A DNA stretch of 14,932 bases from a virus (lineage: Duplodnaviria; Heunggongvirae; Uroviricota; Caudoviricetes): the IMG/VR virus record IMGVR_UViG_2654587792_000025; one strand, 5' to 3'. The position numbers and the translations under genes were made by a program. A model generated the notes under the pieces. The model ran no database searches and had not been told where the DNA came from. It worked only from the letters and a program-made list of their open reading frames with translations. Shown piece by piece: positions 4,777 to 14,560 of this stretch. Positions within the stretch are counted from its first letter, which is position 1, and every line of letters starts with the position of its first letter.

Positions 4777-4788
4777 TACTTACCTATC
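4777..4788 (-). promoter_or_regulatory. Recurrent motif GATAGGTAAGTA (coding-strand orientation) 10 nt upstream of the 160-aa gene ATG
   Basis: Plus strand reads tacttacctatc; the same 13-mer with its flanking g recurs at 14548-14560. Confidence 0.4.
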
Positions 4789-4820
4789 GTTATTTGCGTA
4801 AAAAACGACGCGCGGAGAGA

Positions 4821-5603
4821 TTACCAACTTCCCCAGCTAATCATCTTGCGCTGATCGCTTTCTAAGCGATAGGGGACAAGAAGCTCTGTGACATGATTGG
4901 TGGCGTATGATTTAGCCTCTTGCTCTATCATCGGTAATTCGTTAGCAATCCTGACCATCTTCCCAGCAAACTCCGCCATTACGCCATCACATGCCTTCCC
5001 AGCATCAATAACGATATGCACCAGATCCAACTGGCTTTTGCACATGTCGCAAAGAGACGCATACTCACTCTCTCTGATTACATTTACGGCATCATTAGCC
5101 CCTTTATTAAGCAAGACTTCCAACAGGTTTGTCGGGGTAACGAAATCGGCTTTAAGTGACAATGTTCTCTCACCTTTTATCGACCGTAAGTACTCTTCGT
5201 AGTTTTGCTTGTCTTCCAGCAAAAATAAGCTATGCATAGTTAGAAGTGATTCTTGAATAGCCTCTTCAATAATACTGTCATTTGACGCACAAAAAACGGT
5301 ATTTGTGTAGATCACTTTGCCATCCATCCATGCCCCAACCTGCACTTTAAGACTGATCGGGTTTTCTTTGCTTATAAAAACAACTAATGCAGAACGCCGT
5401 GCACAAGAAGGTTCACCCCATACGTGTAACTTAACCTTCAGATAAGGTAGCCCCGGTAGCGGGATCTCGACCAAACGAGTGGCGATATGATCCATTGCTG
5501 TTTTTACGGCTTTTTCAATGATGTCTAGCCGATTGCTCTCGCTGATTTCTAAACCAGTTTTATCAATGATGTCGCAGGCTAATTTCTGAATTTCGTCTTT
5601 CAT
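4821..5603 (-). CDS. Hypothetical protein
   Basis: 260-aa ORF co-oriented with the replication genes, with an aggag Shine-Dalgarno upstream of the ATG. No motif recognised. Confidence 0.55.
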   Translation of the reverse strand: MKDEIQKLACDIIDKTGLEISESNRLDIIEKAVKTAMDHIATRLVEIPLPGLPYLKVKLHVWGEPSCARRSALVVFISKENPISLKVQVGAWMDGKVIYTNTVFCASNDSIIEEAIQESLLTMHSLFLLEDKQNYEEYLRSIKGERTLSLKADFVTPTNLLEVLLNKGANDAVNVIRESEYASLCDMCKSQLDLVHIVIDAGKACDGVMAEFAGKMVRIANELPMIEQEAKSYATNHVTELLVPYRLESDQRKMISWGSW

Positions 5604-5643
5604 ACCAACTCCTAGCTAACAGATGAAAGTATTCTCACAGAAA

Positions 5644-5665
5644 GATAAGTAACCATCTACTTATT
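5644..5665. promoter_or_regulatory. Palindromic element gataagta-accatc-tacttatt between primase and the 260-aa gene
   Basis: It has the same half-sites as the 2122-2143 palindrome and sits about 40 nt upstream of the 260-aa gene start. Confidence 0.4.
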
Positions 5666-5678
5666 TTAAAGGTGATTG

Positions 5679-6932
5679 TTATGATAGAGCCTTAATGCCC
5701 AAAACCTTGCTTTGCAACTCCAACTGTTTGGTATACGGTTTTGCCCGATAATAGGCTTTGATAATTTGTTCTGGCGTTGCACCGCCCGGGTCGAGTCCTT
5801 CCTCACCCAAACACGCAACTTTGACATTAAGACCGATACTGGTCAGTCGCCTGGCTGCGGCCATAGTGTTGCGTATAGCTTGCTTTTCACTATCCCACAT
5901 CATGATCACATTACGTAACCCACGCGCCTTGAGCGTCAGGAACGCGCCTAACTGATCTTCTGCATCCTGAGTGGTGTTACCAGATAGATGCATCCCGAAC
6001 GTTCCTATTGGTTCCACGTAATCACGTAATGTTTCTTCGTCAAAAATAGCTCGTTTAACCCCCATAACATCGAACGCCCCCTCACAGACAACTACCGTCT
6101 GTTTGCCGACTGCATTATGGCCGTTGTAGAGAAACTTACCTGAAGCTGGAAGCTGCATAGGAAAGAGGTACCGGCGTTCTGCTGTACCGGTAATGTCTCG
6201 TCCCTGAAATGTCTTCATTACCCCATCCAGATCGTAAACCGGTATCAGTATTCGCATATCGAATATCTGTCCTTTAACCTGATCTGTATACGGATCTACA
6301 TAGGCGTGCTTACCTTCGACGCAGTATCGTAGGTCAAAATACTTTGCCATTTCAGGCGATATATTTCGTTCAACCAGATAGTCTGGAAGACGGCCATCTA
6401 TAGGAAGTTCGTAATGACGAGGGAGTGCAACTGGCCCCTCTAACTCGACTGTGCTTGCAAGCACTAGCTCTTCTTTCTTTGGTGCCCACCCCTGGGAAAG
6501 AAGGGCGTTCTGCACATATTCCTCGAACTGTCGTCGTGATTTGCCGCTGTAGTGCTTGAGGAAGACCAGCTTATTGAACTGAATCTCTTCGGGATGATCA
6601 CCAGCGAAGCATTTACCGACGCCACTGGTCAGATTGAAATATACCTTCCAGTTGGAGCTGCCGCATACCGGACACTCCTTGATATTCACTTCACGACCGC
6701 GAGTACTCACGCCTCCACGTCGATAAACGATACCTTCAGTGTCCAACCATTGTTCAAAATCTAATTCGGTAATTAGCTCTTTCAGCTCGCTCACGATAAT
6801 TCCACTTTTAACAGGCAATATTGTGACCAACCTAAATGTTGATATAACATAAAGGCTCATGTGTTTTTCTTTTGTGGTTTGGCAAAAGAAAAGTTGTTTC
6901 ACCAATGAATCAAGCGTGGAGGTGTTCTCCAC
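5679..6932 (-). CDS. DnaG-like DNA primase (zinc-ribbon + TOPRIM); start codon uncertain
   Basis: Zinc-binding signature CPVCGSS...CFAGDH and TOPRIM glutamate/aspartate signature VVVCEGAFDVMG. The ORF-track start at 6932 is a GTG buried in a hairpin stem; an internal ATG at 6860 is an alternative. Confidence 0.8.
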   Translation of the reverse strand: MENTSTLDSLVKQLFFCQTTKEKHMSLYVISTFRLVTILPVKSGIIVSELKELITELDFEQWLDTEGIVYRRGGVSTRGREVNIKECPVCGSSNWKVYFNLTSGVGKCFAGDHPEEIQFNKLVFLKHYSGKSRRQFEEYVQNALLSQGWAPKKEELVLASTVELEGPVALPRHYELPIDGRLPDYLVERNISPEMAKYFDLRYCVEGKHAYVDPYTDQVKGQIFDMRILIPVYDLDGVMKTFQGRDITGTAERRYLFPMQLPASGKFLYNGHNAVGKQTVVVCEGAFDVMGVKRAIFDEETLRDYVEPIGTFGMHLSGNTTQDAEDQLGAFLTLKARGLRNVIMMWDSEKQAIRNTMAAARRLTSIGLNVKVACLGEEGLDPGGATPEQIIKAYYRAKPYTKQLELQSKVLGIKALS

Positions 6933-13037: not shown

Positions 13038-13283
13038 TCATCGACTCAGCTCAGGTGCCCCCCACTCACACAGCCTTTCACCTATCGTATTGTGGATAAG
13101 CAACTGTCGCTCCGTTTCCTCAGTCATAAAATCCTCTCTACTCACATAGATAGGATTTGCAGCATCGCAGAATAGCACGCCTGGAGCCTGCGTCTTAATC
13201 ACGCACCCATTTATCAAACAGCTCGCGATGAACACCAGAGGCATCTTTTTGCCGCACTTCATTAACCGTTTCATTTTTGACAT
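13038..13283 (-). CDS. Rz1-like outer-membrane spanin lipoprotein (o-spanin)
   Basis: +1-frame ORF overlapping the 3' part of the Rz-like gene. Internal Met followed by a basic n-region, a hydrophobic h-region and lipobox IAS-C. The exact start (13283, 13274 or 13262) is uncertain. Confidence 0.5.
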   Translation of the reverse strand: MSKMKRLMKCGKKMPLVFIASCLINGCVIKTQAPGVLFCDAANPIYVSREDFMTEETERQLLIHNTIGERLCEWGAPELSR

Positions 13284-13446
13284 CCACTGTGCTTTGAAGT
13301 CGTTTTCTGTCTTCCTGTTTTGCCTTCTCTTCCATTGCTCGTCGCGCCGCATTTCCGCCCATCGTGTAAGCGCCGACCAGAACGAAAAGAACGGCAGCCA
13401 GCGTAATCAAAGCAACTTTTAGCTTTGTCATCAGGCTGCCTAGCAT
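13195..13446 (-). CDS. Rz-like inner-membrane spanin (i-spanin)
   Basis: 83-aa ORF with an N-terminal transmembrane helix (LKVALITLAAVLFVLVGAY) followed by a charged, helix-prone periplasmic region. It lies directly after the hydrolase candidate and contains the overlapping Rz1-like frame. Confidence 0.6.
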   Translation of the reverse strand: MLGSLMTKLKVALITLAAVLFVLVGAYTMGGNAARRAMEEKAKQEDRKRLQSTVDVKNETVNEVRQKDASGVHRELFDKWVRD

Positions 13447-13447
13447 A

Positions 13448-14167
13448 TTAGACCATCCCTTTCTGGTGTCTTCTTACCTGCGACCAGGCGATAAATCCAG
13501 CCACAACAATAGTGGCAATACCGAAGATGATGCGTACTGTATCCCCGCTAGAGATATGACCTTGTGCTTTATCCATAGCAGCGGAAACCTGCGGCATAAC
13601 ATCGGCCAGCTGCGCCAGACCAATACCTGCTGTAACAGTTGCGCCTGCTGTTTCTTTAGTTACAGGAACAGCCTTCACGGTTTTCACCGGCTTAACGACG
13701 CCAGCTCGACGCAGACCTTCCTCAATAACTTCTGCCGCATACCAGGTGTTCAGCGTTTTTAGCGGACCTCGCCCATTCTCATGGCGAATGATTGCCTCAA
13801 CCAAAGGTCGAAGAATGTCGTAATCATGCAGATCGATAATCATGTCTGCGGTTACACCAACGGCTTTAGACACCTCATTAATGTAGGCGTCAGTGTTGTT
13901 TTCATTCGGCGGTGCCCAACGTTCAATAACTTCACGAATGGTATCGATACTTGAGCCGTCTTTTGCGCGACGCTTGTCGTGGTAGGTAATTAGAGTCACC
14001 GCCAGTGCACGAATCCCCCAAACAGGGTCTTTAAACGTGCAAAAGCGCGGTTCGTCTGGATTCGCAACCAGACCTTGCCACGGTGATCCTTTATCAAGAT
14101 TACCGGGGTTATTATTACGAATGCCTCTCGGAGTCTTCATCCTTGATCTCCTGTTATTGCAGTCCAT
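13448..14167 (-). CDS. Peptidoglycan hydrolase (endolysin) candidate with a C-terminal hydrophobic segment
   Basis: 239-aa ORF placed between the holin-like gene and the spanin pair. The N-terminal motif GIRNNNPGNL is one I associate with phage lytic enzymes but cannot confirm without a search. The C-terminal helix is IIFGIATIVVAGFIAW. Confidence 0.4.
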   Translation of the reverse strand: MDCNNRRSRMKTPRGIRNNNPGNLDKGSPWQGLVANPDEPRFCTFKDPVWGIRALAVTLITYHDKRRAKDGSSIDTIREVIERWAPPNENNTDAYINEVSKAVGVTADMIIDLHDYDILRPLVEAIIRHENGRGPLKTLNTWYAAEVIEEGLRRAGVVKPVKTVKAVPVTKETAGATVTAGIGLAQLADVMPQVSAAMDKAQGHISSGDTVRIIFGIATIVVAGFIAWSQVRRHQKGMV

Positions 14168-14489
14168 TTTTTACGCCATACGCGGCTAACCCCAAAAGCA
14201 GTGCGGTAATAATGAACGACGTTATTTTAGAAACAATGCCGCCAAAGAACCCACTTGAGATGGAATCTAACCGGTTAAGGAGTTTGTCCAGGTTGGAGTG
14301 TTGAATACTATGTTGCGCCGGGGTCATATCACCAAAGTAGGTTTTCAGCTGATCGTTGACCTCCTGGCCAATTTCTTCACGTAGCTCTTTACCTAATTTG
14401 CCAACAACCTCCCGAGCAACGATCGCGGCAATACGCTCAACTTGCTCTGTTGTAACGCCCGCCATCTCGTTCGACATGTTTTCCTCCAT
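14154..14489 (-). CDS. Lysis-associated membrane protein (holin or holin-like regulator candidate)
   Basis: 111-aa ORF with a hydrophilic N-terminal ~75 aa and a single C-terminal transmembrane helix (ITSFIITALLLGLAAYGV). It overlaps the start of the hydrolase candidate by 14 nt. Confidence 0.35.
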   Translation of the reverse strand: MEENMSNEMAGVTTEQVERIAAIVAREVVGKLGKELREEIGQEVNDQLKTYFGDMTPAQHSIQHSNLDKLLNRLDSISSGFFGGIVSKITSFIITALLLGLAAYGVKNGLQ

Positions 14490-14548
14490 GAAAAGTCAAA
14501 TCGGGATGGCGGATTTATATCACATTTCACCCTTTTGTTATAGGTGTG

Positions 14549-14560
14549 TACTTACCTATC
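14549..14560 (-). promoter_or_regulatory. Recurrent motif GATAGGTAAGTA (coding-strand orientation) upstream of the holin-like gene
   Basis: Plus strand reads tacttacctatc, identical to 4777-4788, and is embedded in the inverted repeat ataggt...acctat. Confidence 0.4.

Follow-up and report, generated by a model that had tools for sequence, protein, structure and literature searches.

A conserved palindrome at the gene junctions of SSU5-type phage-plasmids, a candidate dispersed operator

Why does the same short sequence recur ahead of genes in a phage-plasmid? The question is raised by a 14,932-nucleotide (nt) stretch of caudoviral DNA (IMG/VR record IMGVR_UViG_2654587792_000025), which we refer to in its full length as the window. 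It comes from an SSU5-type phage-plasmid, with 97% identity to Escherichia phage Cyrano and to many Escherichia coli plasmids of ~110 kb and 81% identity to Salmonella phage SSU5. An earlier note, made from the sequence of the window, had described a 12- to 13-bp motif, GATA(A/G)GTAAGTA, upstream of minus-strand genes and had suggested that it might be an element-specific promoter, an operator, or a translational operator. The coordinates and identities in that note all agree with the sequence: GTACTTACCTATC is the plus-strand 13-mer both at 4776-4788 and at 14548-14560, 9087-9099 reads TTACTTACTTATC, and 2122-2134 is the reverse complement of TTACTTACTTATC. The recurrence is also real. GATARGTAAGTA has four exact matches in the window (2122 on the plus strand and 4777, 9088, and 14549 on the minus strand), compared with 0.01 expected from 200 dinucleotide shuffles of the window, and 10 matches with at most two mismatches, compared with 1.8 expected. 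Here, we describe the motif as part of a larger palindrome and propose, with about an even chance of being right, that the palindromes are dispersed operators of a prophage repressor that shuts down all lytic operons.

Alignment of the copies and their flanks, together with a scan of the complete Cyrano genome, revealed a 20-bp palindrome with the core ATARGTAA-N4-TTACYTAT. The full consensus is ATA[AG]GTAAGT-ACTTAC[CT]TAT (the hyphen marks the center), and symmetric flanks (ATg...cAT) extend it to ~26 bp, (cAT)gATA[AG]GTAAGT-ACTTAC[CT]TATc(ATg). The information profile of the palindrome is mirror-symmetric. The 12-mer is therefore not a stranded unit; it is the left half and center of the palindrome and has no intrinsic strand. 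Its placement ahead of genes held up, and the association with minus-strand genes only mirrors the direction of nearly all genes in the window, which include those for the holin, endolysin, spanins, ParA, helicase, primase, and ligase as well as small genes. The short match that had been noted upstream of parA, GATAGGTA at 11603-11610, scores below 11 of the 16 palindrome positions and is not a copy. A variable half-site spacing of 0 or 4 bp was also considered and rejected, since the two apparently spacer-less copies fit the 8-N4-8 register.

The palindrome is far more frequent than expected by chance and is concentrated between genes. Cyrano contains 34 matches at 14 or more of the 16 positions with both strands counted, or ~17 sites, and ten shuffles gave 0 to 2. 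When a weight matrix was built from the palindrome sites and strong sites were defined as those scoring at least 18 bits, 21 strong sites were found in Cyrano, 20 of them in the intergenic DNA that makes up 13% of the genome; shuffled Cyrano sequence gave 1 to 3 matches even at 8 bits or more. The genome-wide frequency and the positional bias of the motif are thus both borne out. SSU5 has a comparable set at orthologous gene junctions, and about 25 copies are spread over an SSU5-type genome of ~108 kb.

The junctions that carry a copy in Cyrano involve every class of lytic gene. Among the structural genes, the palindrome is found between terL and the portal gene, where it ends 10 nt ahead of the portal ATG, within the 3'-terminal part of the portal gene, and behind the major capsid gene; in the tail region, copies precede the major tail and tail fiber genes and separate minor tail genes. 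Further copies precede the holin gene, the helicase operon, and the tRNA region, lie between the primase and ligase genes, and stand before the genes for SSB, a membrane-protein pair, SbcD, ribonucleotide reductase, ThyX, and Dam. One copy is located between the divergent uvsW gene and parB-like operon. The sites therefore do not mark a single temporal class, as they precede structural, lysis, replication, and nucleotide-metabolism genes alike. The genes expressed in lysogens (parA, repA, toxin-antitoxin pairs, and integrase-side genes) have ordinary sigma-70 promoters and no palindrome.

The same junctions carry the palindrome in distant relatives. SSU5 keeps it at orthologous junctions even though the flanks diverge, and the palindrome is the best-conserved intergenic block among enterobacterial relatives at two of the copies in the window (copies B and D in Table 1): copy B in 5 relatives at 74 to 92% identity and copy D, which is kept in 7 distinct relatives, at 77 to 98%. 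An exact-pattern scan of viral contigs recovered many SSU5-type contigs and also contigs of 58 to 64% G+C content (high-GC relatives), which have 4 to 8 copies per 13 to 15 kb. These contigs have almost no nucleotide similarity to Cyrano, and their proteins are 30 to 55% identical to Cyrano proteins, with the same gene order. Their version, (G/A)TAAGTAA-N4-TTACTTA(T/C), occupies the same junctions (between terL and the portal gene, after the major capsid gene, and upstream of parB). Phage-plasmids of Acinetobacter baumannii have been reported to be related to the SSU5 supergroup (PMC7969092). In these, a shifted variant, ATTAGTAAG[CT]GCTTACTAAT, occurs in at least 21 copies, and the variant ATTAGTAAGYGCTTACTAAT again stands at the same junctions, including those between terL and the portal gene and between parB and the helicase gene. 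Because the same junctions are kept across enterobacterial, high-GC, and Acinetobacter relatives, the palindrome is, judging from sequence conservation, an old and selected part of this phage family.

An inverted repeat close to genes could act in RNA or in DNA. Several copies lie within 1 to 17 nt of a start codon, and three are found between a stop codon and a terminator hairpin, as might be expected of an RNA-level element, that is, an mRNA hairpin serving as a translational operator, processing site, or stabilizer, or a substitute for a ribosome-binding site. The predicted RNA hairpins are weak, however, with a mean of -3.8 kcal/mol; one third are weaker than -3 kcal/mol, two are at 0, and that of copy B is at -0.2. 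The mirrored positions 4 and 17 show no significant covariation (Fisher p = 0.11), A-C mismatches (9) outnumber G-T pairs (5) there, and the half-site sequence is kept even where pairing is lost. Moreover, in the list of sites the better half-site is the left one about as often as the right one, one copy is flanked by divergent genes, and no Rfam family matches the palindrome copies. The translational operator suggested by the earlier note is not supported, given the symmetry of the site, the absence of significant covariation between halves, and the many copies without a stable RNA hairpin; nor is a substitute for a Shine-Dalgarno sequence, since the distance from palindrome to start codon spans 1 to 84 nt. 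We rejected the RNA hairpin on the grounds of hairpin energies, lack of covariation, and the negative Rfam result at the sites; an RNA-level role of any kind is largely refuted and barely credible. Instead, the symmetric profile, the absence of covariation, the weak hairpins, and the copy between divergent genes point to recognition as double-stranded DNA, probably by a dimer that tolerates one weak half-site.

The start codon of one window gene bears on these distances. The motif does lie 10 nt before the annotated ATG of the 160-amino-acid (aa) open reading frame (ORF), as had been stated, but that codon is ATG, GTG, or CTG in close relatives. An in-frame GTG at 4751-4753 and a preceding GGCGG motif (window 4751-4765) are conserved in relatives, and the true start of this ORF is probably this GTG, 12 nt downstream of the annotated ATG.

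If the palindrome is a DNA site, its position relative to promoters should be informative. We scored sigma-70-type promoters within 45 nt on either side of every site in three genome sets. In each of the three sets, predicted promoters that point along the gene outscored those pointing the other way (Wilcoxon p = 0.015, 4e-4, and 3e-4). In the high-GC relatives, a -35-like hexamer (for example, TTGCAA, TGGACA, TAGACA, or TTGAAA) abuts 12 of 37 sites when they are read along the gene but only 1 of 37 when they are read the other way (p = 0.0014), and the -10 hexamer consists of the last 3 bp of the palindrome and 3 flanking bp (for example, TATGAT, TACAAT, or TATAGT). The statement that the motif does not resemble a sigma-70 -10 or -35 element thus needs qualification: a -10 hexamer is often made up of the final TAT or TAC of the palindrome and three flanking bases, and there is often a -35-like hexamer directly against the opposite end. 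A conserved, element-wide palindrome that overlaps promoters in the gene direction supports the earlier suggestions of an operator or an element-specific promoter.

The arrangement of palindrome and promoter is not fixed. The best -10 is most often at +17 relative to the palindrome and is also found at +20, +27/28, +11, +6, -4, -18, and +41. Canonical -35 and -10 hexamers 16 to 18 bp apart occur at a subset of sites (Cyrano 3527, 57446, and 52659 and a third of the high-GC sites), and a fixed geometry of the form palindrome-N5-TAYnnn was rejected as it fits only part of the sites. Repressor operators usually have variable registers, whereas activator sites usually hold a fixed geometry; the variable -10 register therefore suggests a repressor operator rather than an activator site. 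At the promoter that follows the major capsid gene in the high-GC relatives, a terminator hairpin comes directly after, and transcripts predicted from its sequence, with their starts within the 5' arm of this hairpin, would escape termination. Separately, matches to sigma-70-type promoters are strongly depleted in these genomes (2 in the window compared with ~26 in dinucleotide shuffles, and 97 in Cyrano compared with ~157), a sign that spurious host promoters may be selected against in the lytic region.

Published RNA sequencing (RNA-seq) data for the Cyrano lysogen E. coli LF82, in which the lytic-gene background is ~9.8 normalized units, indicate the state of these promoters in the plasmid-prophage (PMC9928086, supplementary file 2). 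Cyrano genes 56 and 60 are at the zero-read floor in lysogeny broth (LB) and rise by 5 to 6 log2 units inside macrophages (PMC9928086). Both lie directly behind near-consensus promoters overlapped by a palindrome, TTGAAA-17-TATCAT and TTTACA-17-TAGTAT. Because near-consensus promoters under palindromes give no reads, their silence implies active repression in the lysogen. The same data set provides expression levels for proteins that might bind the palindrome: 96 for the XRE-type regulator CYRAN_45, whose gene adjoins the integrase gene, 7.8 for the 88-aa winged-helix protein CYRAN_123, 6.4 for the 71-aa winged-helix protein CYRAN_37, and 5.0 and 9.5 for the ParB-like proteins (PMC9928086). 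Among the conserved DNA-binding proteins of the element, the XRE regulator alone is clearly expressed in the lysogen.

Alternatively, the palindrome could belong to an activator-dependent phage promoter, in which it replaces the -35 element and a phage protein made in the lytic phase recruits host RNA polymerase, like the -22 box of phage P1 late promoters or the MotA box of phage T4 middle promoters. The best candidate for such an activator is CYRAN_123, encoded just upstream of terS; the second is a 71-aa winged-helix protein encoded at 2589-2804 of the window. At most enterobacterial sites, a -10-like hexamer such as TATCAT is present and a -35 is missing. P1 late promoters, AAGT[G/T]ACTT-N4-TAnnnT, resemble the center of the sites described here, AAGTACTT-N3-TAYnAT, in that both have an AAGT...ACTT inverted repeat a few base pairs upstream of a -10 and no -35, and the winged-helix gene precedes terS as lpa precedes pacA in P1. 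CYRAN_123 is a core gene product with homologues in high-GC and Acinetobacter relatives and is kept in SSU5, and its background level in the lysogen would be expected of a lytic-phase activator. In addition, the RNA-seq level steps up directly after the palindromes at genes 12, 34, 56, and 60 (PMC9928086).

Other features of the sites argue against activation. Besides the variable register, a third of the high-GC sites are complete promoters (such as TGGACA-17-TATAGT) in which the palindrome fills the spacer, so that a bound dimer should occlude polymerase, and the near-consensus promoters that are silent in lysogens need a repressor. The sites also span several temporal gene classes, conservation of the flank that supplies the -10 is no greater on one side of the palindrome than on the other, and some sites end 1 to 12 nt before a start codon, which leaves no room for a leader with a ribosome-binding site. 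The resemblance to P1 is limited as well. According to the P1 annotation, the -22 box is a 9-bp AAGTnACTT fixed 4 bp from the -10, whereas here the 8-bp AAGTACTT lies inside a palindrome of 20 to 26 bp with a variable register; P1 late promoters serve late genes, whereas the sites here also precede the genes for helicase, SSB, ribonucleotide reductase, ThyX, Dam, and tRNAs. A phmmer search with P1 Lpa against the annotated and six-frame proteins of Cyrano gave a best E value of 0.024 and no homologue. The P1 Lpa system as such was rejected on the basis of the missing Lpa homologue, the different layout, and sites that are not limited to late genes. We consider an activator unlikely in general, while treating it as the main rival to a repressor. 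A phage-specific polymerase or sigma factor was likewise rejected, as Cyrano and SSU5 have no such gene. The A. baumannii plasmid NZ_CP016301 (locus L129, 15101-15766) carries a sigma-70-family gene between the genes for DNA polymerase III alpha and a MoxR-type ATPase; no homologue of it was found in Cyrano, SSU5, or the other loci.

For repression, we envisage that a dimeric protein encoded by the phage-plasmid would bind the 20- to 26-bp palindromic operator. The candidate is the XRE-type helix-turn-helix regulator CYRAN_45, whose gene lies outside the window. It would occupy the sites in the plasmid-prophage state, blocking the binding of RNA polymerase and perhaps acting as a roadblock at the few sites without an evident promoter. 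In this way, one protein could silence all lytic operons, including those for lysis, head, tail, replication, recombination, nucleotide metabolism, and the tRNA genes, and a weaker copy upstream of the regulator's own gene could provide autoregulation. We infer protein binding, repression by binding, and the identity of the binder, which was chosen on the basis of conservation, expression, and autoregulatory placement.

The regulator falls below the Pfam cut-offs for helix-turn-helix families and matches a PHROG family of transcriptional regulators. It is present in ~800 SSU5-type plasmids, including those of Salmonella and Yersinia, and homologues occupy the same position beside a cobT-like gene in high-GC relatives and Acinetobacter. 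The predicted recognition helix begins with G-Y-K-N-x-N in both the enteric and the high-GC homologues and with G-I-N-Q-N-M in Acinetobacter. An operator-like site is found just upstream of the XRE gene at six loci of the E. coli, Klebsiella-type, high-GC, and Acinetobacter lineages; in Cyrano, this site has the core GGTAAGTGCTTACC and lies 29 nt before the start codon.

Several observations weigh against a repressor of this kind. The sites are intact in phage SSU5, which nevertheless encodes no XRE regulator homologue. Because ~800 SSU5-type plasmids have the gene, those of Salmonella included, we read this as a putative recent deletion that made SSU5 virulent. The XRE gene is also missing from Klebsiella phage ST13-OXA48phi12.3. 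The LexA-like winged-helix protein CYRAN_123 is equally conserved: its helix motif, S-I-x-x-S-I-R, is common to enteric and high-GC homologues, and a clear Acinetobacter homologue (hidden Markov model [HMM] E value of 1e-17) has A-I-T-C-S-L-N. Co-occurrence was rejected as a means of telling the two candidates apart, since both are present in the enterobacterial, high-GC, and Acinetobacter lineages; expression in the lysogen and autoregulatory placement favor the XRE protein over CYRAN_123. The lack of a -35 hexamer at most enterobacterial sites would suit an activator. In addition, uvsW and gene 34 adjoin good sites yet are expressed at 4 to 5 times the lysogen background (44 for gene 34, the orthologue of the 260-aa gene of the window [PMC9928086]), and the increases seen in macrophages could stem from a few cells in lytic growth and not from partial derepression. 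Finally, one repressor acting on early and late operons alike would give no temporal order.

Additional searches with the candidate binders gave little. A sequence search of both against solved structures returned nothing useful, and a Pfam scan detected a self-cleaving S24 peptidase domain in neither. A third candidate, the FljA-like "transcriptional repressor" CYRAN_114, is a member of a Pfam family that takes its name from the phase-1 flagellin repressor and is implausible as the binder, as FljA acts on mRNA rather than DNA. The "transcriptional regulator" at 100780-101301 of Cyrano is a full-length homologue of FljA, the phase-1 flagellin repressor (Pfam Flag1_repress, E = 1e-80), with Hfq-like repeats, and the phage-plasmid may interfere with host flagellin expression.

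Another possibility is that the palindromes are dispersed, centromere-like loading sites for the two ParB-family proteins encoded in the operon upstream of the terminase genes, comparable to the KorB OB sites of plasmid RK2 or the dispersed SopB sites of the phage-plasmid N15. Both genes are conserved in all relatives, a palindrome lies directly upstream of their operon, and KorB on RK2 does use dispersed palindromes near promoters. The ParB-like genes, though, are at the read floor or background in lysogens, where they could maintain neither silencing nor partition, and the element has a separate parA locus, which is expressed in Cyrano lysogens (PMC9928086). Nor would -35 hexamers in the gene direction at a preferred register be expected of centromere sites. 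To our knowledge, the palindrome has no sequence resemblance to parS. A partition role for these sites is very improbable.

The same palindrome also occurs outside this phage family. In a scan of one genome per prokaryotic species, GTAAGTAAGNNCTTACTTAC was found at 108 loci in diverse phyla, compared with an estimated ~9 by chance, and a TetR-family gene starts 5 to 40 nt away at 67 of these. The TetR-linked taxa comprise Acidobacteriota, Planctomycetota, Bifidobacterium, Clostridia, Chloroflexota, Proteobacteria, and a Methanobrevibacter. At 17 of the 67 loci, TTGACA lies 0 to 1 nt upstream and the terminal TAC, with three bases of flank (often AAT), forms a -10, a layout shared with the phage sites of the high-GC relatives. 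The 18 specified bases, GTAAGTAAG-NN-CTTACTTAC, are identical in the TetR autoregulatory operators and the phage sites; the TetR operators, however, are single chromosomal sites beside their own gene, whereas the phage genomes have ~25 copies. Proteins of the TetR family are mostly repressors, and by analogy the parallel would support a repressor operator in a promoter spacer; it is otherwise an unexplained coincidence. At four loci of Bosea and Hyphomicrobiales, GTAAGTAAGNNCTTACTTAC is located 10 nt upstream of dnaB.

The phage family itself encodes no TetR protein: an HMM made from the TetR proteins at these loci detected none in Cyrano, SSU5, the related phage loci, or the window. Since an identical palindrome is an autoregulatory TetR operator in many phyla, this allows a host TetR-family protein to be the reader, for example, the nucleoid-occlusion factor SlmA, with the phage wired to a host regulator or to division control. 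Compared with the SlmA site of E. coli, GTGAGTACTCAC, the center of the palindrome, GTAAGTACTTAC, is changed at a single mirrored position (10 of 12 bases agree). Yet the motif follows the phage family into enterobacterial, Acinetobacter, and high-GC hosts alike, and its conserved outer positions (ATA-R; ATT-A in Acinetobacter) change with the phage lineage. Furthermore, none of 5,426 E. coli genomes has a near-perfect copy on the chromosome, all 8 matching places being on plasmids; because chromosomal copies are lacking, no autoregulated host TetR gene with this operator is evident in E. coli. Such a rival is very improbable. We consider about as improbable a form of it in which the sites are read partly or wholly by a host TetR protein (SlmA, or a ligand-sensing TetR protein elsewhere) that couples the lytic program or plasmid placement to a host sensor.

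A dispersed set of repressor operators would have parallels in other systems. The closest in function would be the C1 network of P1 and the stoperators of mycobacteriophage L5. P1 is likewise a phage-plasmid with a genome of ~100 kb, in which one repressor acts at scattered operators in variable promoter registers, including an operator at the regulator gene; operators are annotated in P1 at ref, mat, ssb, and lpa. The P1 C1 operators are asymmetric 17-mers bound by the 283-aa monomeric C1 protein. Here, by contrast, the site is a symmetric palindrome of 20 to 26 bp and the candidate binder is a 128-aa XRE-type protein, with no sequence similarity between the systems. P1 also employs the separate activator Lpa for its late genes, whereas here the same site precedes structural and lysis genes as well. 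The stoperators bound by gp71 of mycobacteriophage L5 are reportedly ~30 short sites in intergenic gaps, many of them away from promoters, that block elongating polymerase. A similar action would explain copies such as that between terL and the portal gene, but the L5 sites are 13 bp, asymmetric, and orientation dependent, whereas those described here are symmetric and often at promoters, and the host clade and phage family differ. LexA SOS boxes (CTGT-N8-ACAG), which show graded derepression, are also dispersed 20-bp palindromes with variable registers and are informative near positions 2 to 7 and 14 to 19; they differ in sequence, and the regulon here belongs to a mobile element.

The copies in the window, the genes next to them, and two predicted promoters are listed in Table 1.

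Table 1. Palindrome copies, adjoining genes, and predicted promoter elements in the window
Feature	Position	Strand	Sequence	Match to palindrome	Basis and context
Copy D	2123-2142	palindromic	minus strand reads ATAAGTATTTACTTACTTAT	15/16 positions, 28.6 bits	
Copy A (weak)	4768-4787	palindromic	minus strand reads ATAGGTAAGTACAAGATTAT	12/16 positions, 12.8 bits	degenerate right half
Copy F	5645-5664	palindromic	minus strand reads ATAAGTAGATGGTTACTTAT	15/16 positions, 23.3 bits	
Copy B	9079-9098	palindromic	minus strand reads ATAAGTAAGTAACTACCTAC	14/16 positions, 25.4 bits	
Copy C	14540-14559	palindromic	minus strand reads ATAGGTAAGTACACACCTAT	14/16 positions, 24.6 bits	
260-aa gene	4821-5603	-			ORF list; 3' of copy F
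249-aa gene	8326-9075	-			ORF list; 3' of copy B; DnaB-like helicase and primase genes next (Cyrano annotation)
Holin-like gene	14154-14489	-			ORF list; first gene 3' of copy C; Cyrano orthologue annotated holin
Extended -10-like element	5631-5639	-	TGTGAGAAT		read from sequence; 5 nt downstream of copy F
Extended -10-like element	14514-14522	-	TGATATAAA		read from sequence; 17 nt downstream of copy C

Each copy in the window has a defined genetic setting. Copy D, which covers the match noted earlier at 2122-2134, lies between the stop codon of a 96-aa gene and a conserved noncoding block followed by tRNA genes, and its orthologues are at 38252 in Cyrano and 41773 in SSU5. Copy A is upstream of the 160-aa gene, with its orthologue at 35607 in Cyrano. 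Copy F, which was absent from the earlier note, is upstream of the 260-aa gene and corresponds to Cyrano 34730 and SSU5 38178, and copy B is 12 nt upstream of the ATG of the 249-aa gene; a Pfam search assigned no family to either the 260-aa or the 249-aa gene. Copy C stands upstream of the holin, endolysin, and spanin genes, and its orthologues are at 26657 in Cyrano and 27474 in SSU5. TGTAAGAAT or TGTGAGGTT is found 3 to 5 nt after the palindrome at three loci, in both Cyrano and SSU5, and its counterpart in the window is the element at 5631-5639; copy F would be at about -40 to -21 of the promoter predicted there. After the lysis-cassette palindrome, TGTGATATAAA, which contains TGATATAAA, is present at a distance of 15 nt in the window, Cyrano, and SSU5, and the element at 14514-14522 is the predicted lysis-cassette promoter. 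On the plus strand at 14535-14562, TTGTTA-16-TATCAT frames copy C and points away from the holin gene, antisense to a 77-aa lipoprotein gene; it may be a spurious or divergent promoter.

Other features of these genomes came to light alongside the palindrome. The noncoding block between copy D and the tRNA genes, of which the window has three, covers ~1990-2100 on the minus strand (TTTGTTTTCGTTGAGACGCGACTGTTTGAAC..TTAAATA..TGCAAACGA) and is nearly invariant in relatives of only 77 to 83% overall identity. An Rfam search of the window gave only a weak partial tmRNA-like match there (1977-2079, E = 0.06), and the block may be an unannotated RNA gene or a leader of the tRNA operon. A match to the STnc100 small RNA family at 970-1154 on the minus strand scores 44.8 bits, just under the 47-bit gathering score, and overlaps the tRNA-Ser region. 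The first 742 nt of the window are a segment of low G+C content (35%) with a 204-aa plus-strand ORF that has no Pfam match, and a strong terminator lies 3' of this ORF at 746-765. The segment is missing in many close relatives, the best plasmid alignments starting at 743 and only some matching from position 1, and it looks like an insertion of accessory cargo.

Two further repeated sequences were noted. A long AT-centered inverted repeat, GACCTGCTTCCGTATATA...TATATACAGAAACAGG, is found at 9181-9238 of the window and at two or three places per genome, namely, ~31160-31215 and the genome end from 108357 in Cyrano and 33473, 78319, and 103278 in SSU5. One of these places is the genome end adjoining terS, and within the repeat is sequence that resembles a degenerate palindrome. 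The repeat may serve as a terminator in both directions, have a role in packaging, or be a further site for protein binding. At 60500-62400 of Cyrano, the intergenic k-mers ACAGTGGATA and TAACCACT are strongly enriched, with at least two copies around repA, and are probably iterons.

In the literature searched, we found neither a description of this palindrome nor an account of how the switch between plasmid and lytic states is controlled in SSU5-type phage-plasmids. Few phage-plasmids are as common in clinical Enterobacteriaceae as these elements (the pHCM2, pMT1, pKpn, and pSLy3 groups), some of which carry resistance genes. Across the great evolutionary distances that separate Acinetobacter, enterobacteria, and high-GC hosts, the regulon appears to have stayed frozen, probably since ~25 sites must coevolve with one protein. 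The identity of the site with a widespread TetR operator is a coincidence worth following. With a conserved candidate operator before essentially every lytic operon and two candidate binders, the switch becomes directly testable. The palindrome also serves as a sequence signature by which promoters and operons of this family can be annotated, and it offers a route to the controlled induction or curing of these elements.

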